A DNA stretch of 64,000 nt, taken from positions 10,353-74,352 of the IMG/VR virus record IMGVR_UViG_3300024263_000001. One strand, written 5' to 3'. Below are positions 3,627 to 64,000 of the stretch, in pieces. Each line of letters begins with the position of its first letter. The stretch's first letter is position 1. This DNA is from a virus. A model generated the notes under the pieces. That model saw only the letters and a program-made list of their open reading frames with translations. It did not search any database and was not told where the DNA came from. A program made the translations under genes and the position numbers.

Positions 3627-4112
3627 ATGCCCTATCCACGAACCGATTGGACAAACTTAGTACCTCCACCTCTTAGTGCAACCAACCTGGATAAGATAGA
3701 GGCTGGAATCTATCATGCCCTTGCCCATTCTGGTGGAATTAGAAACACGGCGGAATTTTTAGATGAGAACCCTGGTTCCACAACAGGAGGGCTTGCAGAA
3801 GCAATAGCCGATCTTGGAGGTTCCCCTGGTGTTGTTTTTGTAGCTCCCCACAACCATCCGATAGATGTTAATTATGCTGTTCCCGCAACTGTGCATCTCA
3901 TGGTAGGTAGGGGGGGAACTTTTACTATCGCCAATGGAGTAACTCTCACCATCAACGGCACGATTGAGGCGGGGCTGTATCAGATATTTAGTCTCGTTGG
4001 AACTGGAACTGTAGTGTTTGGAACTGGGGTGATTACAGAAGTGTATCCCGAATGGTGGGGGGCCACCGCATCCGCTGGGCTCCAAGAGGGATATGATGCC
4101 TTACCAATATAG
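3627..4112 (+). CDS. Tail fibre/spike N-terminal (attachment) module, apparently truncated
   Basis: MPYPRTDWTN...ATNLDKIEAGI is a typical fibre N-terminus. Ends shortly after VYPEWWGA, the motif that normally precedes a beta-helix. Confidence 0.6.
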   Translation: MPYPRTDWTNLVPPPLSATNLDKIEAGIYHALAHSGGIRNTAEFLDENPGSTTGGLAEAIADLGGSPGVVFVAPHNHPIDVNYAVPATVHLMVGRGGTFTIANGVTLTINGTIEAGLYQIFSLVGTGTVVFGTGVITEVYPEWWGATASAGLQEGYDALPI

Positions 4113-42831: not shown

Positions 42832-43404
42832 ATGAAACAATACCGAGATTCTAATTGGTTAAGGCAAAAGTATTGGGATGAAGGGTTGACACTTGCCGAA
42901 ATAGGGAATTTGATGGGTGTTTGTCGTAATACTATATTCAAATGGATGAAAAGATTTAATATTCCGAGACGAGGTTCGGCTAGTCGTTTTCAAGGAGGGG
43001 AGCGATCTCTAGAGACACGGAGGAAAATGAGTGAGGCTTTTAAGGGGAAGAATCATCGCCTTTGGAAGGGAGGTCGTTTTAAAGACACAGATGGCTATAT
43101 TCTTATTCATAATCCGAAACATCCTTGTGCGCGCGGTGATGGTTATATATTAGAACATCGTTTGGTTATGATGGAAGAATTGGGTCGTTATTTGGAGTCT
43201 TATGAAATTGTGCATCATAGAAATGGGATTAAAGATGATAATCGGGTTGAGAATTTGGAACTTTTCCCTCATGCAAATCAACATAATATATTAACTGTAA
43301 TAACAAATGAGCATATTAAGCGATTGGAAAGTGAATTGAATGTTCAAAGCCAAAAAACAAAAAACTGGATGGAAGCATATTTTCGTGTGTTAGTTGGTGT
43401 ATAA
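42832..43404 (+). CDS. HNH homing endonuclease
   Basis: WLRQKYW HTH, NUMOD3, EHRLVM...[15 protein letters not shown]. Confidence 0.92.
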   Translation: MKQYRDSNWLRQKYWDEGLTLAEIGNLMGVCRNTIFKWMKRFNIPRRGSASRFQGGERSLETRRKMSEAFKGKNHRLWKGGRFKDTDGYILIHNPKHPCARGDGYILEHRLVMMEELGRYLESYEIVHHRNGIKDDNRVENLELFPHANQHNILTVITNEHIKRLESELNVQSQKTKNWMEAYFRVLVGV

Positions 43405-44165: not shown

Positions 44166-45944
44166 ATGCCATATACGAAGGATAAGCCGCCCGCTAGAAT
44201 TAAGAAGTTGCCTGCCCATGCTAGAGCGATTTGGATCTCTGCTTATAATTCGGCAATCAAGCAATATAAAGGCGATGAAAAGAAAGCAAATGCAACTGCT
44301 TGGGCCGCCGTTTCCAGAGATTATAAAAAAGTGGGAGATAAGTGGGTTAAGAAAATGGATGAAATGAAATATTTCTCTATGGCGTTTTCCAAGATTTCAA
44401 AGCGCCAAGGGATTATGCATTTTGAATTGACCAGTAGTGATACTGATTGGGATACAGAGGAAGAGCGTCTTACACTTGAAATATTTGATGATTTTCGGCG
44501 ACAAGAAGAGGAGAAGAAAGCAAAATTAGAGGAGGAGTATATTCCTCCGTATCTTTCTATGTCTCATTATCGGATGCCAATCGGCGATGTTAATGAGATA
44601 TGGACGCAGGGCGAGAGATTTAAGAACAGAGGTATTTTCTACGATGATAAATTTGGCAGAGCATTGTTCAAGGCTATATTGGAAGAACGGACTAGCGGAG
44701 AAGAGGTTGAGAAGCCTATCAAGGTTAGTATAGGTTTCTGGCCCCGTGAAGCCAGGGAAGAGAATGGTAGAATTGCTTATACTAAAGGTGAATTCGATCA
44801 TGTGGCTGCAACCAGAGTTCCCATCAATGTAAGAGCCACGTTTGACGAGGTGATAGAAAAAAGTATGCTTACAAAGAAAGATGATGCAACATCCATAATT
44901 GGCGAGGAATTGGCCATTGAATTGGATGATGACGAGAGAAGTCGCATGGAAAAAGGCGATTTGAAGGATGGCATGGTTATCAAGGCCGAAGATGAGGACA
45001 TCTTGAAATCACTCTTAGAGGATGAGGATAGTAAGGTTGATTGTGACCGTTTGTGGGCTGCCATTCAAGCTATTGGTAAGGGAGAGGCTGGGAAGCCCGT
45101 GAATGTACCTTCAGATGTACTCTCTAAGGCTAAGAGACTTTATGCAAAACGCTGTAAGGGGAAAGGTAAGGGCCTGGTTTCTATTGGTGAGAGCCCTGTT
45201 GTGGTGGATAGACCTTACGGCGGGGCCACGAGCATCGCCGATGCGGTGGCCTACATGGAAAGTCGAGAAGTTGTATGGGATATAAGAGACGATTTACATA
45301 TTTTCAGTGAGGTTGCAGAGAATATTCTCAAATCTCCTGAAGTTGAAGATAAGAAATCAGCAATGGCGAAAGCCATTAAGGAGTTAGAAGGGAAGTTAGA
45401 GGAAGATCTTATGAGTAAAGACAAAGAAAAAGCCAGTGTGTTAGATCTCTTGGAAGAGGGCATTAAGGACCCCGACGCCACCGAGGAGAAAGGTGATCAA
45501 GTCGTCGAGCCCGCGCCCGAAAAGGAGAGTTCTCTCGATGCACTGTTTGGGGTCTTAAAGACTGTCGTTCGCAATGAGGACCTGGATCGTGCAGGTAAAG
45601 TTGCTGGCGCATTTCAGTGCTTGAAGGCCATTAGCGCGGCTTGTGATCGGATTATCGAGGAAAGTACACCTCGCACCCCAGCAGATGTTATTGCTGAAAT
45701 TAGTGAGGCTGCGAGCAAGGCTGCTTTCGATAAAATGATCGAAGCCATCAAGCCTTTGGCTGAAAAGATAACTATTCTAGAGGCCACTATGAGGGCTCCT
45801 TCTGGAGATCCTCAGAGGAAAGGTCTCACAGTTATTGAGAAAGCACAGGTGCAAGGGCGCGAACCTGTGAAGAAGGGGACCATCGCGTATTATGCGGCAC
45901 TCGCAAGTGGCCTAGACCCCGAAACAGGAGAGGCCATATTTTAA
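44166..45944 (+). CDS. ChaB domain, prohead protease-like domain and scaffold
   Basis: LPAHARAIWISAYNSA...AWAAV...Y.K.GDKW (ChaB); H, VSIGF, HVA.T..P.N (HK97-type protease); helical C-terminus; directly upstream of the MCP. Confidence 0.8.
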   Translation: MPYTKDKPPARIKKLPAHARAIWISAYNSAIKQYKGDEKKANATAWAAVSRDYKKVGDKWVKKMDEMKYFSMAFSKISKRQGIMHFELTSSDTDWDTEEERLTLEIFDDFRRQEEEKKAKLEEEYIPPYLSMSHYRMPIGDVNEIWTQGERFKNRGIFYDDKFGRALFKAILEERTSGEEVEKPIKVSIGFWPREAREENGRIAYTKGEFDHVAATRVPINVRATFDEVIEKSMLTKKDDATSIIGEELAIELDDDERSRMEKGDLKDGMVIKAEDEDILKSLLEDEDSKVDCDRLWAAIQAIGKGEAGKPVNVPSDVLSKAKRLYAKRCKGKGKGLVSIGESPVVVDRPYGGATSIADAVAYMESREVVWDIRDDLHIFSEVAENILKSPEVEDKKSAMAKAIKELEGKLEEDLMSKDKEKASVLDLLEEGIKDPDATEEKGDQVVEPAPEKESSLDALFGVLKTVVRNEDLDRAGKVAGAFQCLKAISAACDRIIEESTPRTPADVIAEISEAASKAAFDKMIEAIKPLAEKITILEATMRAPSGDPQRKGLTVIEKAQVQGREPVKKGTIAYYAALASGLDPETGEAIF

Positions 45945-50586: not shown

Positions 50587-50638
50587 AACCTTAAAATTTC
50601 CAGTTTTGTCTTGTAATTGACTAAAACCATGATATAAT
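50587..50638 (+). promoter_or_regulatory. Sigma70-type promoter with AACCTTAAAATT box (copy 5), driving the glycan operon
   Basis: AACCTTAAAATT-N12-TTGTAA-N16-TATAAT. Confidence 0.75.
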
Positions 50639-50834: not shown

Positions 50835-51818
50835 ATGGGAACTCGGTTCAGTGTGATTGTGCCCACTACTGGTGGGCGTATGAAAAATTTAGATCTGGTT
50901 CTTTGTTCTCTGGCCAACCAATATTTTCCTAAAGATGATTATGAAATAATTGTGGTAAACGATGGTGGCGAGCCGGAGGTAAAGGATCTGGTTGCCTCCT
51001 ATAAGGGGGAGTTTGGGAAAATTGTTTATATTGTATCTCCCAAATTTGAGTCCATTCCCCTTTCTCAGGTTGCTCCAACAGATGTAGAGGCTACTATAAC
51101 TATTTGGGGGGAAGGGGGAGATCTTATCAAACTTGTTCCCAACGAACAACCCCGCAACAAGGGGGCAAGGCAGGCGGAACATGGTTTTTATATTTTCGCT
51201 GATTCTGATGTGGTTCTTTCTCCTATGACTCTCGCGCTCTATAACCAGGATATTTCTAACAATCCTGATCGGATCATCTTAGGGATTTATCATTGGTTAC
51301 ATCCTATGGAGATAACTAAAAGAGATATAATTGAACGATTTGATGATATAGTCCATCATCGTCTTATGAAGGTTCCTCTCAACCGCCCGCAAACTCATAA
51401 TATTTGCCGTGATATGCGGTTGAAAAATTTTGAAGCAACGACCCCAGATGAGGTTCACCGTGCCCCTAATCACATGAATGATGGTCTTGCTTGTTTTAGT
51501 GGGAATATATGTTGGCCCAAGAATCTGTTTTGGGATATAGGTGGTTATAATCCTTATCTTCATGCAGGAGCCCACGAGGATGGGATGAGTGGGTTGACGG
51601 CTTACTTCGCAGGGTTTGGAATCTCCTACGACAAGCGGATCATTGGTGGGCATATATACCATGACAGAGACATTTCGTATGTTGAATCTTTCAAGTGGGC
51701 CGAGATAGAGATTATAAATGATAAGTTTAAGGATGAACCAGAATTCAAAGGTGTACTTGAGCAGACGGAGGAAGAGAAGAAACAATTAGGCGTGGGGGAT
51801 TGGAAGAAAGAATGGTGA
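50835..51818 (+). CDS. GT2 glycosyltransferase
   Basis: SVIVPT, EIIVVNDG, RNKGA, FADSD, GGY...HED. Confidence 0.9.
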   Translation: MGTRFSVIVPTTGGRMKNLDLVLCSLANQYFPKDDYEIIVVNDGGEPEVKDLVASYKGEFGKIVYIVSPKFESIPLSQVAPTDVEATITIWGEGGDLIKLVPNEQPRNKGARQAEHGFYIFADSDVVLSPMTLALYNQDISNNPDRIILGIYHWLHPMEITKRDIIERFDDIVHHRLMKVPLNRPQTHNICRDMRLKNFEATTPDEVHRAPNHMNDGLACFSGNICWPKNLFWDIGGYNPYLHAGAHEDGMSGLTAYFAGFGISYDKRIIGGHIYHDRDISYVESFKWAEIEIINDKFKDEPEFKGVLEQTEEEKKQLGVGDWKKEW

Positions 51819-53114: not shown

Positions 53115-53241
53115 ATATCTGGTTGATAAGGTTGATCTCTCTTGGGTTTGGAAAACTGTTGCAGCAATGGCTATAGTTATGTCATCTACGTTTATGGGTG
53201 GATTTTTACTGGGTTGGTTTCTTTGCGGGCGGTGGGGATGA
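53107..53241 (+). CDS. 44-aa single-TM peptide
   Basis: MGEYLVDKVDLSWVWKTVAAMAIVMSSTFMGGFLLGWFLCGRWG; stop overlaps the next ATG. Confidence 0.45.
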   Translation: MGEYLVDKVDLSWVWKTVAAMAIVMSSTFMGGFLLGWFLCGRWG

Positions 53242-54143
53242 GTAAGGTAGCTGTAGTGACAATGGCAAGAACGGGTTCTACAAGATTACCTAACAAGGTT
53301 ATCTTTGATCTTGGTGGCAAACCAGCGTTTATACAGGCTATCGAGAGAGTCACTAGTGTCGTAAAAGCGGATTATGTGGTTGTGGCTTGCTCGATTTATG
53401 CGCGGGATGATCCGATTGAACTCTTCGCGAAACAGTACGGGATAGATTGTTTTCGTGGCCCAGAGGAGGATACAGGTGGCCGATTGAGGATGTGTGGAGA
53501 ATGGTTAGGTCTAAAAGATGATGATTGGCTTGTAAGCTCTAGTTCTGACCAACCTTTGAGCATAACAAAGTGGTTGCCTTGGGGAATAGAGCAACTTCAA
53601 AAACGTGATTGTGCTTACTTAAGGTTTGTTGCGCCCCCCAATAATACCTTGCCTTGGGCTGTGCACGGAAGTGGCCTTACCTCTTGGCGGCTATCGTGGT
53701 GCAATTATAAAACATTTGGTTCCGAGAAAGGCATACATCATGCAACAACGAGAGCTGCGATGTATGTTGATGATTTTAGGCAATCAGGTGGCAAAGTGCT
53801 TATTGTGAATTGGCCTCCAGGGTATCTCAAACCTTGGCCTTGGGGTCCTTTGTTTCTTGACCATGAAGTACAGGCACTTGTATTAAAAGAGATTTACAGA
53901 CGTCTCTACAAGGGAACGCCGATTGATCCTTTTGATGTATATGAATTATTTAATAATGACCCGCATCTTGCTGAGTTTATTTCTGTTGACGCGCCAGAAA
54001 CTATAAATCCTACACCTACCCCAGTGGGAGATCCCTATCTGAGAAGTGTGAGATTGAATGCAGACTATGTTGAAGTGACTTGGAAAGGAGGGGTTGATGT
54101 AACATCGAAGTACGCAAGAAAAGACTATGCAAAACAAAACTAA
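53238..54143 (+). CDS. SpsF/KdsB-family cytidylyltransferase (CMP-sugar synthetase-like)
   Basis: ARTGSTRLPNKV...GGKP...DD.I...CFRGPEED..R; start at 53238. Confidence 0.85.
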   Translation: MSKVAVVTMARTGSTRLPNKVIFDLGGKPAFIQAIERVTSVVKADYVVVACSIYARDDPIELFAKQYGIDCFRGPEEDTGGRLRMCGEWLGLKDDDWLVSSSSDQPLSITKWLPWGIEQLQKRDCAYLRFVAPPNNTLPWAVHGSGLTSWRLSWCNYKTFGSEKGIHHATTRAAMYVDDFRQSGGKVLIVNWPPGYLKPWPWGPLFLDHEVQALVLKEIYRRLYKGTPIDPFDVYELFNNDPHLAEFISVDAPETINPTPTPVGDPYLRSVRLNADYVEVTWKGGVDVTSKYARKDYAKQN

Positions 54144-54155
54144 TAGGAGGTATGA

Positions 54156-55622
54156 GTGTTAAAACGAATAATTAGTATAATACTGCTAGCAACAGTATTA
54201 CTAGTGGCCTGTGCGCCAGCCGCCCCATCTCCTGAAGTAATCGTGGAGACGGTGATAGAAACCGTGGTGGTTGAAGTAACACCAGTCCCCGTTGACGAGG
54301 GTCCTGAACCTGTAGAACTCCTCTGGTGGACTGAGGACTGTGCCTACGTGCCGTGGGAAGCCTGTGAGGGCTGGAACGATACCTATTGTGGTGATGGCCG
54401 TATAACGGAGTCAGGAGATATAGGCCCAATATATGTCGAGGAATGGCACAAACTCTACCCCGAATACGCTCACGTCAATGTCAAGTGTATTATCGCTGGG
54501 TTCGGGGGTGGGCGCATAGGTACTGAATTGACGGCCATGATACGGGCAGGTGAAGGCCCCAACATCTATATGCTCTACGGGGGAAGGGGTTGGCTTGCCT
54601 ACAAGTTGGGCGTTAACCTTGATCCATACATATCGGACGAGGCCAAGGCTGATTACCTCAACTACGAACAGTGGTTCGATGAGGACGGTACAGTTGTTAT
54701 GCTTCCTAGTTCGGGTGTCATCGAGTATCCCGTAGCTAATAAGCAACTCATCGAACGTGCCTGTGCCCAAGAGGGATTTGATTGTGAGATCCCTGAGCGT
54801 TGGAGCATCATGTCCTATGATGACTACCTGGAAATCGCAGAGGCTATCAAGGCTCTCGATGACGGCTCCTACATGGGGATACTCTTCGGTATGCACGCAT
54901 CAGGCCAGACTTGGAACATGCTTTACTTCACCCAGGCAGGTCTCTCCCCGACCGAGGGTGGTAAGTTTACTGGATTCGCAGGTGGCGAAGATGTTCTAAC
55001 TGAACTCCTCCGCCTATACGATGAAGGTTACTTCTATCCTGATATAGCAGGCGCTTCTGATGACGATGCCATCAGGCTCTTCGCCCCTGGCAAGATTGGC
55101 ATCTTCATGGCTCGTCTATCAATTGGTCCTTCGTACATCGGCCCTGCTGTAGAAGCTGGGGAGTGTGAACCTTGGGATTTAATCCCGCTTCTGGGTATTC
55201 AGTTCAGAGAAGGCGTTACTCCTCTCATTGCAGGAAGCCAGTATGGTCGGGTCGGCTTCATGTCCGAGAACACGCCCGAAGAACATCGGGAAGCCGCCAT
55301 GAGCTTCCTGTCTTACGTTCTTTCTGCCCCCTGGATGGGAGAGTCACCAGGCGTAAATGCTATGAGTGGTGGGGACATGTTTATCCCTCTCCATTCAATG
55401 GTGGAACGCGGGATAGCAGCACCTGGTCGGGATGAAGCTTACGCCCATATTCAGGAATATGGCCTCGCCGACTATGGTTTGCAAATACCGTTCTACAACG
55501 ACGTTCGTGCAGCGTTCGGCGATATGCTCTCTGCTGTCGCTTTACATGAACTAACACCTGAAGAAGCTCTAGCACAATTCCAGGCCAAGATCGTAGAACT
55601 GGAAGAGGAGTGGAACAGGTAG
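54156..55622 (+). CDS. Carbohydrate ABC transporter substrate-binding lipoprotein
   Basis: Lipobox LLVAC, VETV.ETVVVEVT linker, AGEGPNI, NK.LIE, FAPGKIGI, TPEEAL. Confidence 0.9.
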   Translation: MLKRIISIILLATVLLVACAPAAPSPEVIVETVIETVVVEVTPVPVDEGPEPVELLWWTEDCAYVPWEACEGWNDTYCGDGRITESGDIGPIYVEEWHKLYPEYAHVNVKCIIAGFGGGRIGTELTAMIRAGEGPNIYMLYGGRGWLAYKLGVNLDPYISDEAKADYLNYEQWFDEDGTVVMLPSSGVIEYPVANKQLIERACAQEGFDCEIPERWSIMSYDDYLEIAEAIKALDDGSYMGILFGMHASGQTWNMLYFTQAGLSPTEGGKFTGFAGGEDVLTELLRLYDEGYFYPDIAGASDDDAIRLFAPGKIGIFMARLSIGPSYIGPAVEAGECEPWDLIPLLGIQFREGVTPLIAGSQYGRVGFMSENTPEEHREAAMSFLSYVLSAPWMGESPGVNAMSGGDMFIPLHSMVERGIAAPGRDEAYAHIQEYGLADYGLQIPFYNDVRAAFGDMLSAVALHELTPEEALAQFQAKIVELEEEWNR

Positions 55623-55625
55623 CAA

Positions 55626-56486
55626 GTGAAGAAGCACAATTGGTGGGGGCCGGTTCTGCTGGCCCCTGCCTTGCTCTTACTAATGTTCATGTATATTCTG
55701 CCAACTCTCTATGCCGCCCGCCTGAGTTTCTACGATGTGGGCTTTGCGAAAGATACTTGGTTGGGACTGGAGAACTTTCGCCGTCTCCTGTCTAAGGGGG
55801 GATGGGTGACAAGCATGCAAGTATCAGGAAAATTCCTAGTTCTGGTCTTGTTTGTAAGTTTAATAATTGCATATATTTTGGCATTAGCTCTCAGAAAGTT
55901 TAGTGAGCGGTTCTGTAGGATGATTTTGACCTTATATTATATCCCAACTATTTTTGCGGGGGTAGTAACAGTAGCGGTCTGGAGATGGTTTTATAGATAC
56001 CCGAACGGTGGGCTAAACAATATTTTAGACTCTCTTCATTTGCCTACTATCTCGTGGCTGGGAACTCCAATAACTGCACCTTGGGCTCTTGGATTTTTAA
56101 TGATGGGAACCATGTTTGGGTTCTCCACCTTGTTGTATGTGGCTGCTATTGGTCAGATAGATTTAGAACTCTTGGGGGCTGCTAAGATAGATGGTGCCAA
56201 TGAGTTCCAATTGATATGGTATATCATCACACCTCTGACCCATCGAGTGAGACTCTATATAACCTTGATCAGCACTGTCGGTGCTTTAAGTATTTGGGAA
56301 CATCCATTCTTCTATACGGGTGGAGGCCCCATAGGAAGTACCACAACAGTGCTCCTAAAAGTCTATCAGGAGGCTTTCGCCAGGGACAATATTGGATTAG
56401 GAAGTGCCATGACTACAGTAACAACATCTATCATTTTAATTTTTGCAATCTTCGGAGTAAGATATTTTAGGGAATTTTTGGGATGA
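55626..56486 (+). CDS. Carbohydrate ABC permease (MalF/UgpA-like)
   Basis: GLENF, GGLN..L....ISWLG, EAA-loop variant GAAKIDGAN, TGGGP..STT. Confidence 0.93.
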   Translation: MKKHNWWGPVLLAPALLLLMFMYILPTLYAARLSFYDVGFAKDTWLGLENFRRLLSKGGWVTSMQVSGKFLVLVLFVSLIIAYILALALRKFSERFCRMILTLYYIPTIFAGVVTVAVWRWFYRYPNGGLNNILDSLHLPTISWLGTPITAPWALGFLMMGTMFGFSTLLYVAAIGQIDLELLGAAKIDGANEFQLIWYIITPLTHRVRLYITLISTVGALSIWEHPFFYTGGGPIGSTTTVLLKVYQEAFARDNIGLGSAMTTVTTSIILIFAIFGVRYFREFLG

Positions 56487-57328
56487 GGGGATTCACGAGA
56501 ACACAAAAACTATTAGCAATCTTACTGATCTTGTTTGGGGTGATTTGGCTTTTCCCAGCCTATTTCACTATACAAACCTCGTTTCTTAGCAAATTCACCA
56601 GCCCTACGAATTTATGGGGTCACGTACATCTCGAAAATTGGAAGGCGCTTCCTTGGCGTAAGTTGGGTAGCTGGGCATTTAATACTGTTATTGTCTGTGG
56701 GATAGCAGTTATTCTTTCCCCTATAGTTTGTATAAGTGCGGGTTATGCTTTTGTTAGATATAACTTTTGGGGAAAAGAAGCAATATTTTATTTATTTTTA
56801 CTGGCGATAACGGTGCCTGGTGTTGCTTTGTTTTTACCTAGATACTTGCTAATTGTCCGCTCTGGTCTAAGGGGCACTCATCTTGGTCTAGCCCTTCCTG
56901 GGATTATGGCCCCCGCCGCGGTTTTTCTTGCAAGGCAATATCTCTCGCAAATGGATATATCTATTGTTGAAGCTGCTAGACTGGACGGAGCATCAGAGAT
57001 AAGGATTCTCCGTAGTATTGTTTTTCCACTTTCAGTGCCTTTAATAGTATTGAATTTAATTGGAGGATTTACGGCGGTCTATGGGGATTTTTTCTGGCAG
57101 TTTTTAGTTGGCGGAGGTATTCAGACCTTGGCAGTAGGCATCGGCCTGTTTATACTTTCTACGGATTCCGGTGGTGCATTGGGAGGGTCAGTTAGCTCGG
57201 CTTTGGGGGGGACCACTCCCATTACAGTGGAATCCCTTAGGGCAGCGGTCTCGGTTTTGCAATCTCTGCCATTATTGATCTTATTCATCGTTGGGCAAAA
57301 ATATTTTGTGAAGGGTATTAAAATATGA
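56483..57328 (+). CDS. Carbohydrate ABC permease (MalG/UgpE-like)
   Basis: AGYAF..YNF.GK, EAARLDGAS, IVFPLS.P, QKYFVKG. Confidence 0.93.
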   Translation: MRGFTRTQKLLAILLILFGVIWLFPAYFTIQTSFLSKFTSPTNLWGHVHLENWKALPWRKLGSWAFNTVIVCGIAVILSPIVCISAGYAFVRYNFWGKEAIFYLFLLAITVPGVALFLPRYLLIVRSGLRGTHLGLALPGIMAPAAVFLARQYLSQMDISIVEAARLDGASEIRILRSIVFPLSVPLIVLNLIGGFTAVYGDFFWQFLVGGGIQTLAVGIGLFILSTDSGGALGGSVSSALGGTTPITVESLRAAVSVLQSLPLLILFIVGQKYFVKGIKI

Positions 57329-58395
57329 AACTAGCAATTGTCGGCTGGCGTCCTTGGTCGGTTGTGCGGAGGTATAAGAGCTTAATTGTTAATGCTAAAA
57401 AGTTGGGCCACCAGGTTGTTGGCATTGCTCTTGAGCATTATGGTGATCGTCCAAAGACAGCATCTCTATTTCGGGATTTGGGGGTGCCAGTAGGTTCGTT
57501 GAATCAATTCCGCCCCGATGCTGTCTTTGGGGAATGTTTCTGGAACGCAGAAGAAAATGCTGCCCGTGTGTGGGCGCGGGGAGCACGCAAGAAGTATTTT
57601 GTGTTGGACCATGGTAAATGGAATGCGCCTGTTGATCTTTATAATCATGGTAATATGAAACCACCAAATGTAATGTTAACAGTAAATGAAAAGAATGCTG
57701 ATTATCTATGTAAGGAATTTAGAATTCAGGCGATTCCTGTGGGTGTTCCTAATTTTGATGTGGAATATGAGGTTGATATAGATAAAGTTAGAATAGATTT
57801 GGGAGTTACGAACCAACCAATGGTCGCTCTCTTCTTGGAAGTGGTTTATCAGGGAATCCGCTTAGAATATGAACGGGAAAGGTTATTTTCTTTTCTCGCT
57901 CTAGCCCAGAGGAAGAATTGGAAAGTTTTCATGCACATTGATCCCGATGAACAAGGAAGAAAAACCAGGTTCCTAGATCGGGGACATCCCCGCCGTGCTT
58001 TTCTCAGGGAACTCCAGGGTAGGGGAGGTATCTTTGTTTCATGTTTTCCTGGGGATTATAATGATGTTATATTCAAACCCTGCGGACCTATGGCTTTGAT
58101 GCGTTCTGCTGATCTTGTGTGTGGTACTTATCATAAGATGTTTGAGGCTTATGTTGCCACCAAGAAATATTTTTGGATGAGAGAAGGAGAAGAAGGTGAA
58201 GGACATATATCTCTGAATAGACATCCCAATCTTGTTAAGGTTGACCCAGATTATGGAAATATCGTAAAAGCGATTGAAGAGAATACGGCATCTTTTGAGC
58301 AACATCCAGCTTATGTGAAACGGTGGTTCTATAAATTGGACGGAAAGTGCTGGATGCGGATATTGGCTGTTGCAGAAGCATCGAGGAGAAGATAA
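57325..58395 (+). CDS. GT-B-like polysaccharide biosynthesis protein (TagB/capsule-type)
   Basis: DHG, VGVPNFD, ADLV, DGKC..RI pattern. Confidence 0.55.
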   Translation: MKLAIVGWRPWSVVRRYKSLIVNAKKLGHQVVGIALEHYGDRPKTASLFRDLGVPVGSLNQFRPDAVFGECFWNAEENAARVWARGARKKYFVLDHGKWNAPVDLYNHGNMKPPNVMLTVNEKNADYLCKEFRIQAIPVGVPNFDVEYEVDIDKVRIDLGVTNQPMVALFLEVVYQGIRLEYERERLFSFLALAQRKNWKVFMHIDPDEQGRKTRFLDRGHPRRAFLRELQGRGGIFVSCFPGDYNDVIFKPCGPMALMRSADLVCGTYHKMFEAYVATKKYFWMREGEEGEGHISLNRHPNLVKVDPDYGNIVKAIEENTASFEQHPAYVKRWFYKLDGKCWMRILAVAEASRRR

Positions 58396-59141
58396 TGGAA
58401 TTCGTACATGAAGCATTGAGAAACAAACACAAAGACCAGCCAGTTTGGGTTGTAGGTGCTGATCCCACAATAGTAAAGTTTCCCAAGGATTTCCTGAAGG
58501 ATAAATTATCTATAGTTGTAGGAAGTGCTTATGTTGCTTTTCCGAATGGAACTTATAATTACAATAACGAATATAGAACCGTTGAGGAATTTTGGCCAGG
58601 GAGGTTTCCTGATTATTTGACCAAATCACACATTTGGGCTTTCCCGTTTTATGGTATGGGTGAGGGAGGATCCAGAAAGTTTATTGAAGAACATAAACCC
58701 CCGAAACTTTGGTCTTTACATTATAGACCTTACCCACCAAAGGGTCGTCGCCCCGATATACTTACGGATGTGGGATACAATGCTATGGTTGGGTTAGTTC
58801 ATAAGGCAAATGAGGGACACCCAGGCCCCTACGGTGGGTTTGGCACGAGTCTCCATTGCGCGCTCTATTCTGCTATTATTATGGGTTGTAACCCGATTAA
58901 CATAATTGCTTGTAGCCATCGGATAATAGGTGGATATTATCATGCCCCAGAACTGGGTGGGGTTCCCGCCACTCCTCAGCAGATTGTCGCTGCCACCAAA
59001 AGCATGCGCAGTTTTAACGAACGGGGAACGCAGGCGATCATGGAAGGATGCCGAAAGGAGGGTATAACAGTTCTTAGGTTTATTGGTTATGAGGGGGTTC
59101 AAGCAGCCATTAAAATTGCAGAAGCAATGGGGAGGAAATGA
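58395..59141 (+). CDS. Maf/DUF115-like (sialyltransferase-fold) protein
   Basis: LRNKHKDQPVWVVGADPT, TSLH.A...A..MGCNPINIIAC. Confidence 0.7.
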   Translation: MEFVHEALRNKHKDQPVWVVGADPTIVKFPKDFLKDKLSIVVGSAYVAFPNGTYNYNNEYRTVEEFWPGRFPDYLTKSHIWAFPFYGMGEGGSRKFIEEHKPPKLWSLHYRPYPPKGRRPDILTDVGYNAMVGLVHKANEGHPGPYGGFGTSLHCALYSAIIMGCNPINIIACSHRIIGGYYHAPELGGVPATPQQIVAATKSMRSFNERGTQAIMEGCRKEGITVLRFIGYEGVQAAIKIAEAMGRK

Positions 59142-59836
59142 CAACAATTGCGGCGATTCTTTTACATTATTGGAAACAAAGAACGGGTAATGTCGAGAGG
59201 GTGATTGAAGATTTAAAACGAGGCACTCGCCCCCCCGATAAGATTATTGTCTTTAATAATAACAAGGACGTGGTATTCCCTTCCCTCCCCGAAGTGATTG
59301 TAATAAACTCCAATCATAATTATCATTGCCTGATGAGACATGCTATGGGGCTGATGGCGGGGACCGACCTTTGCTTATTTGTGGACGATGATATAACGTT
59401 GCAGGTGAACGGTTTGGCGTATCTGCTTCAACAGCACAACTCTCATCCTAAAGCAATTATAGGATTTGAAGGGAGAATACTAGGGAGAGATAAAAAGAAC
59501 CCTTACACCTCTGGTTCCAGAGTTCATCATGTATCTAGGCCCACACCAGTAGATATAGTTTTGGGAAGAGTTCATCTTTGTCATGTTAACAAACTTCTGA
59601 ATTCCTTTGTGATGAGAGCCAAGATAGGCAATTTCTCCGATGATAGTGTGGGGTCTTATTCAACGGATGATATTCTCTTGTCCCTCTCAAACAGGATTTT
59701 GAATAGAGCCCAGAATTATGTGGTTCCTTCCAAAGCAATAGAACTTTCAGAGAGAGGGGTTGGTTATCATGGTACAGATAAGCAACACTACCCCAGGAGG
59801 AATGCCGCTTGTAGGAAGTTATTAGGTTATGGCTGA
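59138..59836 (+). CDS. GT-A glycosyltransferase (GT2/GT64-like)
   Basis: IIVFNN, FVDDD, TDDILL. Confidence 0.75.
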   Translation: MTTIAAILLHYWKQRTGNVERVIEDLKRGTRPPDKIIVFNNNKDVVFPSLPEVIVINSNHNYHCLMRHAMGLMAGTDLCLFVDDDITLQVNGLAYLLQQHNSHPKAIIGFEGRILGRDKKNPYTSGSRVHHVSRPTPVDIVLGRVHLCHVNKLLNSFVMRAKIGNFSDDSVGSYSTDDILLSLSNRILNRAQNYVVPSKAIELSERGVGYHGTDKQHYPRRNAACRKLLGYG

Positions 59837-60368
59837 ATTTTTGACTTTTGTGACACGAACATGCAAGCGCCCTCACATGTTGTTGAAAAATATGGAATCT
59901 GTTCGCACACAAACGGATGATGATTGGAAACAGATTATTTTAGTGGATGATAAGAAGAGGGGGAAGTTTTATGCTAACAAGATGCTCGCTGCTCACAAAG
60001 GAAGAATTAAGGGACAGTATGTTTATATTTTAGATGATGATCATCGGTTGATTATTCCTGACTTTGTGACAGGGATTCGGAACATTGTTAAAAAGAAGAA
60101 TCCAGATATCATTATGGTGAAGTGTAAAATTCGTTATCATGGAATTTTGCCCCGCCGATGGAGACAGAAACCAAAAAGTGCCTATATAGATACAGGATGT
60201 TTTGTGGTTAGGGGAACATTGTGGAGGAAGCATATTGGAACATTTGGTGTGCCTGTGTGCGGGGATTATCATTTTATTACTAGGGTTTGGAAACAGAAAG
60301 GAGTAAGGATAGAATGGTGGGATAAGGTTGTCGCCGAGGATTTGAGGGAAACAATGCAATGGGGATGA
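59829..60368 (+). CDS. GT2-like glycosyltransferase
   Basis: RP..L...ESV..QT, ILDDD, GDYHFI. Confidence 0.8.
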   Translation: MAEFLTFVTRTCKRPHMLLKNMESVRTQTDDDWKQIILVDDKKRGKFYANKMLAAHKGRIKGQYVYILDDDHRLIIPDFVTGIRNIVKKKNPDIIMVKCKIRYHGILPRRWRQKPKSAYIDTGCFVVRGTLWRKHIGTFGVPVCGDYHFITRVWKQKGVRIEWWDKVVAEDLRETMQWG

Positions 60369-60754
60369 AAATCTGGGTCATTCGTGGTGGCGAGATAATA
60401 GATTATGAGCGTGTTGGTAAATGCTTGGGCTGTGGAGAGTGCTGTGGGCGATTTGCCTATCATTGTCAGATGGCCGAGTCCCCCAAAGAGGCCAAAAACG
60501 GAAAGTACGCAGATCTAACAAAGCGCGAGGGTTGGGCTGTAGAAGATTGGGATGATGAGAACGAGTGGCGATGGTGGGGACCGTTCGATATTACCGAGCG
60601 GAAGAAACCGTGTCAATCGTTCAATTCCAAAACCAGGCGATGCAAGGTATTTGGGGAGAAGAAATGGCCAGAAGTTTGCCGTAAGTTCCCTTTGAGGTCA
60701 GAGGACTTAGAAGGATTATCTAACTGTGGTTTTTCCTTTAGGGAGACACAGTGA
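60365..60754 (+). CDS. YkgJ/CxxCxxCC (FliB-like) Fe-S/Zn-binding protein
   Basis: CLGCGECC...C......CKVF...PEVCRKFP. Confidence 0.8.
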   Translation: MKIWVIRGGEIIDYERVGKCLGCGECCGRFAYHCQMAESPKEAKNGKYADLTKREGWAVEDWDDENEWRWWGPFDITERKKPCQSFNSKTRRCKVFGEKKWPEVCRKFPLRSEDLEGLSNCGFSFRETQ

Positions 60755-61245
60755 AATATAAAACGATACTGGCTGATCCTCCTTGGAAGTATGGCAAGGG
60801 TTGGGGGTGGGGGGCGGGCGAGTATTATCCGCTGATGACCGTTGAAGAAATATGTGCGCTCTCTATTCCCTCCGAGGACAACGCCCATCTATATTTGTGG
60901 TCGCCCAATGGGATGTTACCCGATGCTTTACGAGTGATGAAGGCCTGGGGGTTTACCTACAAGACTTGTATCACTTGGGTAAAGCATAGATCTATCTTTG
61001 GTTATTATTTTAAAGGGCAAACGGAGCAACTGCTTTTTGGTGTGAAAGGACGATTGCCCCCTGCCGATAGACGGCAAGTTACAGTTCTGTTTGCCGATAT
61101 TAGAAAGCACAGCCAAAAACCTAATGAGATTTATGAAGTAATAGAGAAGGTTTCTCCCCCACCATATTTGGAATTGTTTGCCCGCCAAAGGCATAATGGC
61201 TGGGATGTATGGGGCAATGAAGTAAGGAGCGATATAGAGATATGA
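60751..61245 (+). CDS. MT-A70-family adenine methyltransferase
   Basis: ILADPPW, LYLW, AWGF.YKT..TWVK, HSQKP, ELFAR, WGNE. Confidence 0.92.
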   Translation: MKYKTILADPPWKYGKGWGWGAGEYYPLMTVEEICALSIPSEDNAHLYLWSPNGMLPDALRVMKAWGFTYKTCITWVKHRSIFGYYFKGQTEQLLFGVKGRLPPADRRQVTVLFADIRKHSQKPNEIYEVIEKVSPPPYLELFARQRHNGWDVWGNEVRSDIEI

Positions 61246-62033
61246 AATTCGTTTCTCTATGTATTCTCAGTTACAAAAGATTGGCTTTTCTGAAAAGTAC
61301 GATCAATTCTATCAAGGAAACCACAAAATTTTCTTATGAGTTGCTAGTACATGATGATGGCTCGGATGAGAATTGGTTCTATATCCAAGACTTAATGTGG
61401 GCTAGGGAAATCAGCACCGCTATATACAACACAGGAAGTAATATGGGAGTGGGCGAAGCCATCCATCGGCTCTTTTCTTGTGCGAAGGGGGAATATCTGG
61501 TCAAGTTGGATGCGGACCTTCAATTCCGATCCAATTGGTTGACTTTAGGCGTGGCTCTACTAGATAAATACCCTGATATTGGAGCCCTTGGGTGGTTCGC
61601 CTACCCCGCTCCCAGCGAACATAAAATCACCCGCAATCGTGAGGATCCCAGCAAGGATAATACTCTCATTGAAATAAGAGAGGATTGTGAAATCGTTCAT
61701 GATTTCGTTTCCTCAGCAATGATTATCCGAAGAGAACATTGGGAGAAATATGGGATTGAACGGGGCTCAGAAGCATTTGCTGAGGATATTGGGCTCAAGG
61801 AGAAAATGAAAGCCGACGGCCTGCTGATGGCTATTACCAAAAAGGATTACATTGAGAATGTTGGATTTGGTCTTGAAAAAAGTGTAGTTGTAACTCCTGA
61901 TGAAGCAGGCCAACCCCAAGTGGCGAAGATTTGTAAATACCCTTTGCTTTTTAAGGACGGTAAAGCAATACCTATGATTGATATAAAGGAGGAGGAGAGG
62001 GATGAAATTAAGGAAAGCCTTGGACAAGATTAA
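61242..62033 (+). CDS. GT2 glycosyltransferase
   Basis: VHDDGS, N.GVG, KLDAD, AED. Confidence 0.88.
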   Translation: MKFVSLCILSYKRLAFLKSTINSIKETTKFSYELLVHDDGSDENWFYIQDLMWAREISTAIYNTGSNMGVGEAIHRLFSCAKGEYLVKLDADLQFRSNWLTLGVALLDKYPDIGALGWFAYPAPSEHKITRNREDPSKDNTLIEIREDCEIVHDFVSSAMIIRREHWEKYGIERGSEAFAEDIGLKEKMKADGLLMAITKKDYIENVGFGLEKSVVVTPDEAGQPQVAKICKYPLLFKDGKAIPMIDIKEEERDEIKESLGQD

Positions 62034-62304
62034 AAGGAAAGCATCAGGTTATATATTAGCTTATGACCCCCGTGGGAAGACTGAATATGCGTGTAGAGCG
62101 TGGTTTGCCGAACATGGACCTTGGTTCCATGGTTATGGGACTAGTGAGGAGGAGGCCGCCGAGGATTGCTTAATGAAATTGAAAGCATGGTGGGATGTGA
62201 GAGATAAAGTTAACGTGGGGGACGGACTTTCTCGGCGTCGGGAGAAGGATGGGAAAGAAACGGAAGAAAAAACGGATACCGAAGAGGAAACGAGAATCAC
62301 CTAA
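62002..62304 (+). CDS. HicB-like small protein
   Basis: GYGTSEEEAAED...W resembles the HicB G.T.EEA motif. Confidence 0.4.
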   Translation: MKLRKALDKIKRKASGYILAYDPRGKTEYACRAWFAEHGPWFHGYGTSEEEAAEDCLMKLKAWWDVRDKVNVGDGLSRRREKDGKETEEKTDTEEETRIT

Positions 62305-63133
62305 AGATTTGGTTGCATCACCAAGACCATTGGTGGATATTGTAATTCCCGTCTATGGGCATCCAAATATGTTGCGGGGCACAATTGCTTCTCTCAGGTT
62401 ACATCCCAGTTCAATCTCGTGGAGATGTTTCGTTGTAGATGATGCCAGCCCCGAAGAGAATGAAACAGAATTAAACACCATCTATCGGAGTTTGAAGAAG
62501 GATCGCCGTTTCCGTGTGATAAAATCTAAAAAGAATCTTGGTTATGCGGGAGCCAATAATAAAGGGGCCGCTTCTGGTAGTTCTCAATTTATTCTTTTGT
62601 TGAATAGTGATACGAGAACAACTGGGGATTGGCTCGCCCTCCTGGTGAAAGAGATGCATGATTCAAAAGTGGGAGTGGTTGGGTGTAAATTATTATTTTT
62701 TCCTGAGAGATTCAATGACCCCAAACGCCCCGCTGGTAGGATTCAACATGCGGGGGTGGTTTTTAATGTAACACGGGCTCCCTATCACAGGATGATTGGC
62801 TGGCCCTCAGATGATATACGTGTTAATCGAAGAGAGGAAATGCAATCTGTTACTGGTGCTTGTTTTCTTACAAGACGAAATCTCTGGAGTAAGATTCGGG
62901 GTCTAAACGAGATTTACACAAAGGGCAACTTTGAAGACGTGGAATATTGTGTTCACCTGGAGCATTTGGGTTATAAAGTGATTTATACTCCAGAACCTCT
63001 TATTTATCACTTTGGTGGGGGATCTGAGAATTATCAAACTGCTCAGAGGAATCTCCAGATATTTTTGATGCGGTGCGGACAGGCGGTCCGATTTGATGAT
63101 TACTGCTTCGCTCGGAAGGATGAGGCCCAATGA
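62249..63133 (+). CDS. GT2 glycosyltransferase (WbbL/rhamnosyltransferase-like)
   Basis: DIVIPVY, VVDDAS, NLGYAGANNKGA, LLNSD, IQHAG, VTGAC, FEDVEYC. Confidence 0.92.
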   Translation: MGKKRKKKRIPKRKRESPKDLVASPRPLVDIVIPVYGHPNMLRGTIASLRLHPSSISWRCFVVDDASPEENETELNTIYRSLKKDRRFRVIKSKKNLGYAGANNKGAASGSSQFILLLNSDTRTTGDWLALLVKEMHDSKVGVVGCKLLFFPERFNDPKRPAGRIQHAGVVFNVTRAPYHRMIGWPSDDIRVNRREEMQSVTGACFLTRRNLWSKIRGLNEIYTKGNFEDVEYCVHLEHLGYKVIYTPEPLIYHFGGGSENYQTAQRNLQIFLMRCGQAVRFDDYCFARKDEAQ

Positions 63134-64000
63134 GATGGCTATATTGTATATTTCAGAATTTGTGGCAAGAGGTAGTGGTTATTTTAGGATCGCGGAGGGA
63201 CTTGCTCCCCGCTTAGATGAAAGGGAGCCTTTATATTTCTTGGGTCTAAATTATCGGGGCGCGTACCATCCCTATAACTTTACAGTTGTTCCTACTAGGG
63301 CAGATTGGATTCCCGCCCAGATGGAAGAGATGCTGGGGGATAAATCTTTAGACATTAACAAAGTTGTTGTTGCTTTGGATCTTCCAGTTCAGACTCAAAG
63401 AGTTCTTGCCTTTTTCCCCCCACAGAAACGAGAGGGATGGAGATACATAGGAATTTTCCCTCTTGATGGTGGTCCCCTTTCCCGCAGGTTTGCCCTCCCC
63501 ATTCGATTTATGAACATTAGTTTCGCTATTAGTAAATTTGCCCATCATTGCTGTCTTGATTTGGATTTGGATGTTCATTATTTGCCCATTGGAATAGAGG
63601 AAAAATCTTGGCGGCCCATCGAAAAGGAACATAAAGAAAAAGTTAGAAAAGAATTTAATGTTGCCGACAAATTTGTTGTTCTTTTTGTGGGTGACAACCA
63701 CGAACGAAAATATGCTGTAGGGGCAATGGAAATTTTTGCTGAATTCTCTAAGGATAAGGATGATACAGAGTTGTGGATGGTAACTCGTCTCGGTAGTGCC
63801 TATGGTTTTGATTTGGAATATTATGCCCAGATGTGGGGAATAGAGGACAGAGTGAAATTCTGGGAGCGCACTCTTTCCCCCAAATCTCTTTGGCTTATGT
63901 ATGCTGCATCTGATGTTTTGCTTAACACCTCTAAGGCTGAAGGTCTGGGCCTCCCGCTACTAGAAGCAATGTCAGTTGGGGGAGCGATCCCTGTAGGTAC
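63130..64000 (+). CDS. GT4 glycosyltransferase, runs off the window (absent from the ORF track)
   Basis: MRWLYCISEF...VGDNHERK...YAASDV.LNTSKAEGLGLPLLEAMSVG. Confidence 0.9.

Follow-up and report, generated by a model that had tools for sequence, protein, structure and literature searches.

At positions 54156–57328 of the window, the 64,000-nucleotide stretch that we analysed from a 74-kb sediment phage, three genes on the + strand form a single tight operon. They encode a lipoprotein solute-binding protein (SBP) of the CUT1 carbohydrate type (54156..55622), a MalF/UgpA/GlcT-like permease (permease 1, or TMD1; 55626..56486) and a MalG/UgpE/GlcU-like permease (permease 2, or TMD2; 56483..57328). 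The binding lipoprotein and the two permeases of the original prediction are thus all present. The two permease genes overlap by 4 nt, as do permease 2 and the gene that follows it, which encodes a 356-aa protein, and such overlapping start and stop codons join the permease genes to transferase-like genes downstream.

The SBP is a protein of 488 aa with a GTG start, an AGGAGG Shine-Dalgarno sequence 6 nt upstream, an LLVAC lipobox and a linker rich in Pro, Glu and Val. It belongs to the sugar-binding class SBP_bac_8 and SBP_bac_1 (PF13416, PF01547), and only 10 relatives were found among 5.8 billion proteins. When its profile is compared with the PDB, it matches exclusively sugar or oligosaccharide binders, and the best fold matches of a low-confidence structure model (pLDDT 58) are CUT1 oligosaccharide and glycoside binders. 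These profile and fold matches include binders of chitin oligosaccharides, maltose/trehalose and sulfoquinovosyl compounds, so the likeness is to oligosaccharide and glycoside binders in general, with no known sugar-acid binder among the matches. The description of this protein as unusually Cys-rich proved too strong: it is only moderately rich, at 1.6% (8 Cys), and the 7 that remain in the mature protein are each kept in 6–9 of the 10 relatives. The GC content of the gene is 0.52, against a genome mean of 0.44.

Both permeases carry the BPD_transp_1 domain (PF00528; E=3.5e-10 and 5.1e-11), and permease 2 has six hydrophobic segments. Their best NCBIfam matches, GlcT/UgpA and GlcU/UgpE/MalG, score 60–76 bits (permease 1: GlcT 76 bits, UgpA 65 bits), far below the equivalog cut-offs of 260–360. 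Each subunit has an EAA coupling loop, canonical in permease 2 (EAARLDGASE) and altered in permease 1 (GAAKIDGAN). This alteration had been singled out in the original prediction, and it is both real and unusual: the first EAA position is E or D in 122 of the 128 nearest motif-bearing permease representatives, and G stands there in only two, both from the clade of this phage. Across the five members of that clade, the AAxxDG core is invariant in the loops of both permeases. Permease 1 keeps AAxxDG...ITPL throughout, with G, E, G, A or D at the first position, so that three of the five members, this phage among them, have lost the acidic residue there. In MalFGK2 this residue contacts the nucleotide-binding domain (NBD), and its loss from TMD1 may weaken or alter docking on one side. 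In a phylogeny with their homologues, the permeases form an isolated clade on a long stem (support 100/100), for which no close cellular relative was found. Searching with permease 1 recovers its own clade at 494 and 355 bits, after which scores drop to 199 bits for the next representative; among permeases with a name, the closest are sugar permeases of the ordinary Firmicute kind.

The genes surrounding the trio form a glycosylation cluster, also on the + strand. Ahead of it stands a promoter-like site (TTGTAA, 16 nt, TG-TATAAT; 50611..50638), the sole 10-of-12 match with an extended -10 that this strand shows upstream of the cluster; the resemblance is to the consensus only, and promoter-like sites of the region are no commoner than in shuffled sequence. 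The cluster opens with a GT2-family glycosyltransferase (50835..51818), in which the match to Glycos_transf_2 (E=4.5e-11) covers the N-terminal part only, and which also shows a weak EpsD-like match. Directly before the SBP lies a KdsB-like cytidylyltransferase (53238..54143; CTP_transf_3, PF02348, E=5e-10). Its ORF opens at 53142, and alignment to three homologues places the probable start at M33 (53238). The N-terminal CTP-binding fold of KdsB/NeuA-type enzymes is present, together with an (A)RxxSxRxPxK motif that is invariant in four homologues. The profile matches KdsB structures (3jtj, E=3.5e-14) convincingly over the N-terminal nucleotide-binding half only; most matches cover residues ~7–126, and two KdsB chains (three entries) align over 8–214. 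NCBIfam scores for this protein are 16–38 bits against cut-offs of 155–281.

Downstream of permease 2 come the 356-aa protein (57325..58395) and a 248-aa protein (58395..59141, in an ORF that opens at 58347), neither of which falls in a known family. An Atlas model of the 356-aa protein gives a TM of 0.75 to a PF04464 (TagF-type) cluster, which supports a predicted GT-B fold only. We rejected its assignment as a TagF-type CDP-glycerol glycerophosphotransferase, given that the PF04464 HMM is silent (E<=1); the PF05159 HMM likewise has no match, and no significant PDB sequence match was found. One further Atlas cluster for this protein carries PF07388 on 13% of its members. The 248-aa protein has a possible MptE/Maf-like fold (TM 0.69–0.71 to MptE-like Atlas clusters), a likeness that serves as a lead only. 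It was not accepted as a Maf/MptE-like nonulosonate transferase: the PF01973 HMM has no match at E<=1 in the three phage genomes, no PDB sequence matches the protein, none of its 11 relatives has a Pfam domain, and our own structure model of it is poor (pLDDT 52). The remaining genes encode a GT64-like glycosyltransferase (59138..59836; Glyco_transf_64 E=3.5e-4, just under the cut-off), a 179-aa GT2-related protein kept with the module (59829..60368; Glycos_transf_2 E=1.7e-5), then a CxxCxxCC protein, an MT-A70 methyltransferase and two GT2 glycosyltransferases (60359..63133; PF03692, PF05063 and twice PF00535), and a GT1/GT4 glycosyltransferase (63093..64000; Glycos_transf_1) that is cut by the contig end. 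No catabolic enzyme, whether glycoside hydrolase or kinase, was found in the cluster.

The window is evidently phage DNA, with TerL, portal, DNA polymerase and DnaB genes all present, and it also encodes a Beta_helix/NosD virion protein (4121–5812). The sequencing runs that hold the phage are labelled as subsurface and seawater metagenomes, and IMG/VR lists the record as 'linear, 57% complete'. The last 137 nt of the record repeat the first 137 nt, with 126 identical, which suggests that the 74-kb genome is effectively closed, a lesson in how such a label should be read. This overlap leaves the GT1/GT4 frame open, so that the gene runs on into the beginning of the record, where connector and tail genes come next. 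The cluster therefore has TerL and portal upstream and the connector and tail genes downstream across the circular junction, and it contains phage-typical genes itself (Cpn10, a 3D-domain protein and MT-A70). Hallmark genes on both sides, and recurrence in other viral genomes, mark the trio as phage auxiliary genes rather than host flank.

Two other viral records, G001 and G002, carry the trio (the present phage is G000). G002 is a record of 45.1 kb with a GP7-type head protein, TerL and a tailspike, and its exact 32-nt terminal overlap suggests that it is closed as well. Its module is flanked by the head protein and the tailspike; G000 and G002, two unrelated phages, thus both have a glycosyltransferase cluster set between head and tail genes. 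The cytidylyltransferase adjoins the trio in all four contigs that show the trio's flanks (G000, G001, G002 and a further contig, L007), even where the flanking genes differ, and in L007, where the order is rearranged, it adjoins the opposite end of the trio. In the ATPase-less phages, the permeases have no constant companions besides the SBP and the cytidylyltransferase. As for the other neighbours, the 356-aa protein has homologues in L007 (53%) and G001 (29%) and none in G002, the 248-aa protein is conserved in G002 (63%) and L007 (29%), and the GT64-like protein is 57% identical to that of G002 and ~90% to that of L007. The 179-aa protein is 55% identical to G002:3748-4353, which is directly upstream of the G002 cytidylyltransferase.

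Neither the closed phage genome nor G001 or G002 showed the MalK-type ATPase of a CUT1 importer (ABC_tran with OB/TOBE). The absence of an ABC ATPase had been noted for the operon and the window, and it extends to the whole record: the PF00005 HMM detects only the Walker A of DnaB, at 12.9 bits, no ORF combines a Walker A with LSGGQ, and tblastn with a related MalK-type ATPase gives nothing. A MalK homologue elsewhere in this effectively closed genome was thus sought and not found, and no ABC ATPase was found in G001 or G002. The contig L004, phage or cellular DNA, which is nested in the permease clade with support of 100/100, is arranged differently. A 372-aa gene (ABC_tran, OB_MalK and TOBE_2), complete, MalK/MsmX-type and cell-like, lies 120 nt upstream of its SBP, where there is no cytidylyltransferase, so that not every clade member has a cytidylyltransferase link. 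The product of this ATPase gene shares 65–82% identity with hundreds of 'multiple sugar transport ATP-binding' proteins. The nesting of this contig within the clade argues that the importer lineage uses a MalK-type motor, and makes borrowing from the host the best reading for the ATPase-less phages.

The SBP and both permeases are under strong purifying selection and not decaying, since dN/dS is 0.04–0.07 (TMD1 0.069; TMD2 0.038; SBP 0.074, G001 versus G002), both docking loops are conserved, and GC content fits the genome in which the genes lie. For the permeases and the cytidylyltransferase it is ~0.43–0.44 in the 0.44 of G000 and 0.52–0.55 in the 0.55 of G002; the outliers are the SBP, 2–7 points higher, and the G001 cytidylyltransferase, 5 points lower. 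Pseudogenisation, which would have spoken against the original prediction, has left no sign, and the genes are intact.

We interpret the trio as the core of a functional importer that depends on a MalK/MsmX-type ATPase of the host, a reading to which we assign a probability of roughly 0.6. The phage would carry the membrane-tethered binding lipoprotein and the heterodimeric channel of a CUT1-type (MalFGK-like) carbohydrate importer, leaving the motor to its host. Most likely, and with reasonable confidence, the two conserved EAA coupling helices would dock the host's shared MsmX/MsmK/UgpC-type ATPase, which would then power uptake during infection. Of the readings originally offered, this borrowing of an ATPase is the best supported, given the closed genome without an NBD, the conserved coupling helices, the purifying selection, the NBD of L004 and a documented precedent. 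The precedent is that of NBD-less CUT1 operons in monoderm bacteria, which are powered by the orphan multitask ATPases MsmX and MsmK, with NBDs exchangeable between species; examples are B. subtilis AraNPQ, GanSPQ and MdxEFG with MsmX, and S. pneumoniae importers with MsmK (PMC7658222). The phage trio resembles these operons in its SBP_bac_1/8 lipoprotein, its two EAA-loop BPD_transp_1 permeases and its want of an ATPase gene, and the MalK-type NBD with OB/TOBE that such a system would be expected to use is present beside the clade member L004. It differs in being phage-borne within an operon of virion genes, with a host-ATPase dependence that is putative here, in the depth of its separation (best outsider 199 bits, 355–494 within the clade), in the lost TMD1 acidic residue, and in having a cytidylyltransferase and glycosyltransferases as neighbours rather than catabolic genes or regulators. 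With E. coli MalEFGK2 and UgpBAEC and the archaeal glucose importer GlcSTUV (CUT1, TC 3.A.1.1) it shares TMD families and type I importer architecture; unlike them it has no NBD in cis, and it scores far below the equivalog cut-offs of their NCBIfam models. If our reading is correct, a phage that supplies channel and binding protein, keeps them under strong selection and relies on its host for the motor alone would clearly exemplify a virus–host hybrid molecular machine, and a testable one because shared sugar ATPases work across species.

The same observations have been, or could be, read in other ways. One suggestion was that the phage titrates the ATPase away from host transporters: the permease pair would sequester the shared sugar ATPase and stop host sugar uptake or, in a version without transport, lipoprotein and channel would block superinfection. 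The lack of a phage NBD and the conserved EAA loops are compatible with this, and the loss of the TMD1 acidic residue could mean non-productive docking. However, titration is disfavoured: neither an SBP nor full-length permeases would be required of a sink, yet selection strongly preserves all three genes, including the SBP with its conserved cysteines. The NBD of L004 would make no sense for a sink, and the genes appear to be expressed late, beside biosynthetic genes, so we consider the suggestion improbable. Slightly more doubtful still is transport without an ABC ATPase, through an SBP-gated facilitator or by group translocation coupled to a phage protein, the cytidylyltransferase. The constant company of SBP and cytidylyltransferase and the relaxed first EAA position of TMD1 would suit such a scheme, but the EAA cores show the conservation seen in relatives that depend on an ATPase, L004 has its MalK-type NBD, and the analyses run gave no positive sign of such coupling; to our knowledge, no type I importer works without an NBD. 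We are most sceptical of an artefact (host DNA at a prophage edge, a chimeric assembly or decaying cargo). The IMG/VR entry, a window that ends inside the cluster and an SBP with GC above the genome mean might raise that concern, but it is already contradicted by the overlapping record ends with connector and tail genes beyond the cluster, the interspersed phage-typical genes, the like position of the G002 module, the low dN/dS and the failure to find a close cellular homologue. Depth is also even across the cluster (~10–31x, mostly 12–18x), with no joints in two runs, which are possibly the source data.

Accepting that the importer borrows a host ATPase, there are two views of what it is for. 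It could be nutritional only, importing an oligosaccharide as a carbon and energy source while infection proceeds, possibly from capsule or EPS fragments freed by the phage's beta-helix depolymerase, with the glycosylation genes sharing an accessory-gene island and not a pathway. The SBP profile and fold, the Firmicute sugar permeases nearest to the trio, the Beta_helix/NosD protein and the pairing of the L004 trio with an NBD instead of a cytidylyltransferase all agree with this, and carbohydrate ABC transporters are listed as metabolic auxiliary genes in virome surveys (PMC8319345). Against it stand the adjoining cytidylyltransferase in four contigs despite rearrangement and differing flanks, the failure to find a glycoside hydrolase, kinase or other catabolic enzyme in the cluster, and the position of the genes in a late structural operon, with stop/start overlaps with transferase-like genes; we think it unlikely. 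The original prediction considered the three genes alone, without their neighbours. Once these are included, the likely purpose shifts from nutrition to the supply of a glycosylation pathway. An external sugar or sugar acid would be taken up, activated with CTP by the cytidylyltransferase and transferred to a virion protein or the host envelope. The adjoining cytidylyltransferase, the glycosyltransferases around it and the failure to find a matching sugar-acid synthase (neither NeuB nor KdsA in the three phage records) make such salvage the likeliest purpose, at somewhat less than even odds. The importer genes themselves appear to be expressed late, with the head-to-tail operon. We infer the direction of transport, the substrate and the link to the cytidylyltransferase. 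A fully self-contained version, in which an external ulosonic-acid-like or other unusual sugar enters through a phage importer driven by a hijacked host ATPase, is activated and is put on head or fibre proteins or the host surface, is more tentative; virion decoration would then depend on environmental supply. We give scant credence to its extreme variant, where the cytidylyltransferase would take the place of any ATPase in coupling transport. That the trio is constantly paired with a sugar-activating enzyme, in a head–tail glycosyltransferase cluster, suggests that its role goes further than nutrition, and the phage may be providing the units with which the virion or the infected cell is glycosylated.

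The proposed logic of importer, cytidylyltransferase and transferase has its counterpart in sialic-acid scavengers, which cannot make the sugar and combine a transporter with a CMP-sialic acid synthetase and a sialyltransferase; one CUT1-type importer of sialic acid, SatABC of S. pneumoniae, is energised by MsmK. Unlike those systems, the module is set in a phage, its SBP has no sequence or fold link to nonulosonic or ulosonic acids, and its cytidylyltransferase is KdsB-like in the N-terminal half only. Virion glycosylation by phage glycosyltransferases placed among structural genes is found in mycobacteriophages, and the clusters of G000 and G002, between head and tail genes, are similar in this respect. 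As far as we know, those mycobacteriophages draw on the nucleotide sugars of the host and have neither a transporter nor a nucleotidyltransferase, whereas both are carried here.

Cyanophage PstS, a single phage-encoded binding protein that works with the permease of the host, is a similar case of host-like uptake parts in a phage; the present phage, in contrast, supplies everything but the motor, with the SBP and the two subunits of the channel. Such parts also occur in marine-sediment viruses: 'ABC transporters for carbohydrate' are listed among the auxiliary genes of cold-seep viruses, at catalogue level and without completeness, synteny or selection analysis (PMC8319345). For phages of poorly known subsurface habitats, the ATPase of L004 may also offer a clue to the host, as its four relatives with an organism name, 65–69% identical, are all from Anaerolineae.

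The three transporter genes at 54156-57328 are tightly packed on the plus strand, and the original prediction described them correctly. The first, whose GTG start codon lies 6 nt 3' of an AGGAGG Shine-Dalgarno sequence, encodes a substrate-binding protein of 488 residues (SBP; 54156-55622, plus strand) that matches SBP_bac_8 and SBP_bac_1 and carries a lipobox, LLVAC, with a Pro/Glu/Val-rich linker after it. Seven of its eight cysteines are in the mature part, and each cysteine position is kept in 6-9 of 10 relatives. An AlphaFold model of the SBP was poor (pLDDT 58) and was used solely for naming the fold class. Both remaining genes give BPD_transp_1 matches: permease 1 (55626-56486, plus strand), with the EAA loop GAAKIDGAN, and permease 2 (56483-57328, plus strand), with the canonical loop EAARLDGASE. 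Their best curated matches are GlcT/UgpA for permease 1 and GlcU/UgpE/MalG for permease 2, at 60-76 bits against cut-offs of 260-360, and we therefore regard them as divergent CUT1-type subunits.

The SBP and permeases are isolated in sequence. Only ten relatives of the SBP were found among 5.8 billion proteins, all of them metagenomic. Searching 1.84 billion cluster representatives with a permease 1 profile recovered its own clade at 494 and 355 bits; the best outsider, at 199 bits, lies where the bulk of ordinary CUT1 permeases starts, and of the outsiders that carry a name, Cohnella sugar permeases come closest. A maximum-likelihood tree unites the module permeases in a clade with 100/100 support, whose stem is 1.3 substitutions per site long. 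No close relative was present among GTDB species genomes, which yielded only a 27% chance match, and a single-protein scan of viral contigs gave no match. Against deposited phages, blastn with the module found nothing, and tblastn with permease 2 returned just fragmentary, unannotated records of at most 32% identity; by these comparisons, none of the deposited phage genomes carries a comparable permease. One 5.4-kb metagenome contig (L009), with a distant SBP (27% identical), was considered as a distant member and dropped, since its permease falls among cellular ones in the tree. Between its SBP and permease this contig has a DUF5131 gene (L009:3353-4024, E=3e-35).

The altered EAA loop reported for permease 1 is a real relaxation, confined to one position of one subunit and specific to the clade. 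Among the 128 nearest permease 1 representatives with the motif, the first position is E in 97 and D in 25, and G is found in two sequences only, both from the phage's own clade. Across the five members of that clade the position reads G/E/G/A/D, the pattern AAxxDG...ITPL is invariant, and all four copies of permease 2 retain E or D. Taken as a whole, the coupling helix of permease 1 is intact. In MalFGK2 the acidic first residue of the EAA loop contacts the nucleotide-binding domain (NBD), the ABC ATPase that powers the transporter. We speculate that its one-sided loss may loosen or broaden NBD docking.

The claim that the importer lacks its ATPase depends on the completeness of the genome. 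The source record, an IMG/VR entry of 74,352 bp in which the window occupies bases 10353-74352, is labelled linear and ∼57% complete. Its first 137 nt (L019:1-137, L019 being the record start) recur as its last 137 nt (window 63864-64000); 126 of these match exactly, and the first 11 bases, which are ragged, include a 1-nt indel. A GT1/GT4 gene truncated at the 3' end of the window resumes at the 5' end of the record and so spans the junction. Such an overlap resembles the trace left by an assembler on a circular or terminally redundant genome, and we therefore consider the record essentially complete, the genome looking like an effectively circular or closed molecule of ∼74.2 kb. Over the whole 74-kb record, the sole match to the PF00005 HMM is the P-loop of DnaB (12.9 bits), no ORF in any frame contains both Walker A and an LSGGQ-type signature, and tblastn with a related MalK-type ATPase found no match in the phage. 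The original prediction had named a cognate ATPase elsewhere in the phage as a point against borrowing; none was found in the closed genome.

The window carries the phage hallmarks of a large terminase, portal, DNA polymerase and DnaB helicase. Past the junction, genes matching a head-tail adaptor, a Neck1/tail-completion protein and a tail terminator (two of these three matches are weak) precede a large ORF, probably for a tail protein. From these matches we derive the order terminase/portal/head, Cpn10, a 14-kb glycosylation/transport cluster, then connector/tail. Phage-typical genes also occur within the cluster itself: those for a 3D-domain protein and an MT-A70 methylase, and one with a weak XhlA-like match. 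Across the capsid genes and on through the module, the depth of the Logan contigs is even, with no joints (∼10-31x over the cluster, mostly 12-18x); the two runs behind these depths and the habitat labels are possibly the source data themselves. Beyond the window end the contig continues as a divergent strain variant, with 17 of 30 bases alike, which is no help with the junction. The large terminase, only ∼23% identical to Streptomyces phage terminases, gives no host inference.

The order cytidylyltransferase, SBP, permease, permease recurs in viral and metagenome loci, with a 356-aa, a 248-aa, a GT64-like and a 179-aa protein as variable members. Two other viral records carry the trio, and neither encodes an ABC ATPase: G001 (23 kb, GC 0.54) and G002 (45.1 kb, GC 0.55, with an exact 32-nt terminal overlap). 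G002 encodes a GP7-type major head protein, TerL and a tailspike, and its module sits between head and tail genes. Besides the module, our phage and G002 have only two proteins in common, one encoded at window 3627-4112 (47% identical to part of the G002 tailspike ORF) and the other at window 8423-10018 on the minus strand (53% identical to the ORF after that tailspike); therefore the module passes between phages that are quite unlike each other. This pair of phages may have receptor-binding parts in common, and hence related hosts.

Decaying cargo is rejected as an account of these genes by low dN/dS, matching GC and conserved cysteines. Between G001 and G002, dN/dS is 0.074 for the SBP, 0.069 for permease 1 and 0.038 for permease 2 (dS 0.7-1.2), indicating purifying selection and not the pseudogenisation that the original prediction had named as evidence against it. 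The GC of the permeases and cytidylyltransferase is in line with that of their own genome in both our phage and G002; the outliers are the SBP, 2-7 points above its own genome, and the G001 cytidylyltransferase, 5 points below. We take the trio to be long-resident, functional phage genes. The module is also mosaic: the trio is 88-92% identical between G001 and G002 and the adjoining cytidylyltransferase just 45%, and between the window and L007, a contig with rearranged gene order, the GT64-like protein is ∼90% identical and the SBPs 37%. Its parts are exchanged separately.

What powers the importer can be approached through its relatives. A 3.9-kb metagenome contig, L004, has an SBP 46% and a permease 1 53% identical to those of the window, the latter with the canonical E at the first EAA position, and falls inside the module permease clade in the maximum-likelihood tree. 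It encodes a complete ATPase of 372 aa (L004:78-1196; ABC_tran, 120 bits; OB_MalK; TOBE_2), the gene for which ends 120 nt upstream of the SBP. In contrast to the isolated SBP and permeases, the ATPase is of a cell-like kind: hundreds of proteins are 65-82% identical to it, many under the name 'multiple sugar transport system ATP-binding protein', and the four matches bearing an organism name all come from Anaerolineae MAGs (65-69% identical). L004 is either a phage with a captured host msmX-like gene or a cellular locus. In either case a MalK/MsmX/UgpC-type motor is what this transporter lineage is made to work with, and near-identical motors exist in hosts of the Anaerolineae kind. The Anaerolineae relatives are a possible host clue for the phage group. 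Anaerolineae have no outer membrane, in keeping with an SBP that has a lipoprotein tether and a long linker. A MalK-like ATPase gene also occurs on a viral contig (L018:3167-4210), following the genes for a GP7 major capsid protein (439 bits) and for Bbp16; no SBP or permease could be seen before the end of this contig. In the ATPase gene the codon for the Q-loop glutamine reads TAA (MVF*SYALYPHM). Stop-codon recoding was rejected, given that TAA also terminates other genes there, and the in-frame TAA is a nonsense mutation or sequencing error.

The original prediction had offered two fates for the host ATPase, namely that the phage borrows it or that the phage permeases titrate it. The literature documents orphan CUT1 operons that run on shared MsmX/MsmK ATPases, and these ATPases are exchangeable between species (PMC7658222). 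Given this precedent and a lineage with a MalK-type motor, we infer from such indirect support that the phage importer borrows a host NBD, this being the parsimonious reading; titration is disfavoured.

The neighbouring genes suggest a purpose for the import. Directly upstream of the SBP is the cytidylyltransferase (53238-54143), with an ARxxSxRxPxK motif, whose profile matches KdsB structures at E values as low as 3.5e-14, chiefly along its N-terminal half. It adjoins the trio in all three phage records, and in L007 it lies on the opposite side of the trio. NeuB and KdsA are absent from the three phage records, which encode sugar activation without synthesis. Genes downstream of the permeases are joined by overlapping stop and start codons. 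In its Atlas model the 356-aa protein following permease 2 adopts a GT-B fold, with TagF-type CDP-glycerol transferases as the nearest match (TM 0.75), and the 248-aa protein after it shows an Atlas likeness to MptE/Maf-like folds (TM ∼0.7); further downstream are the GT64-like protein and a number of GT2 and GT4 enzymes. The PF01973, PF04464 and PF05159 HMMs gave no match, and the TagF-like and Maf-like readings are leads only. Our own AlphaFold model of the 248-aa protein was poor (pLDDT 52), and no fold search was made from it. A complex prediction of the two permeases with the cytidylyltransferase scored 0.00, which speaks neither for nor against binding.

Under the pathway that we tentatively propose, with a probability of about 0.45, the importer would take up a substrate, the cytidylyltransferase would activate it with CTP, and the transferases would pass the activated product on. 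A Kdo- or nonulosonic-acid-like sugar would fit the KdsB-like enzyme, and a polyol phosphate the Ugp-like permease matches and TagF-like fold; as for the SBP, its likeness is to binders of neutral oligosaccharides and glycosides. That two unrelated phages both have the module placed between their head and tail genes suggests the virion as the target, the host envelope being equally possible.

By its proposed mechanism, the trio belongs with NBD-less, MsmX/MsmK-dependent CUT1 operons. The trio goes further than single-component PstS-type phage genes. 'ABC transporters for carbohydrate' are among cold-seep viral AMGs (PMC8319345), a catalogue-level listing that the trio exceeds. We regard the trio as a phage-specific, selected, motor-less importer core inside a glycosylation cassette.

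Several further features were observed. Within the SBP gene, minority strain variants with four substitutions (54836-54890) make up about a quarter of the depth in both runs with the phage. In G002, a single ORF of 3,244 aa (G002:34661-44395, or L011:14661-L012:4395 on the two segments of this record) takes up one fifth of the 45-kb genome and lies downstream of both TerL and a possible portal ORF of 597 aa; a radical SAM protein (L011:5446-6309) matches phrog_9298 (E=6e-39). Between the portal and probable capsid genes of our phage lies a 592-aa protein (window 44166-45944) with an N-terminal ChaB domain (E=6e-16) and a remainder without any match. HNH/NUMOD3-type homing endonuclease genes are found among the structural genes, after the portal (window 42832-43404) and in the tail region (L019:7722-8390).
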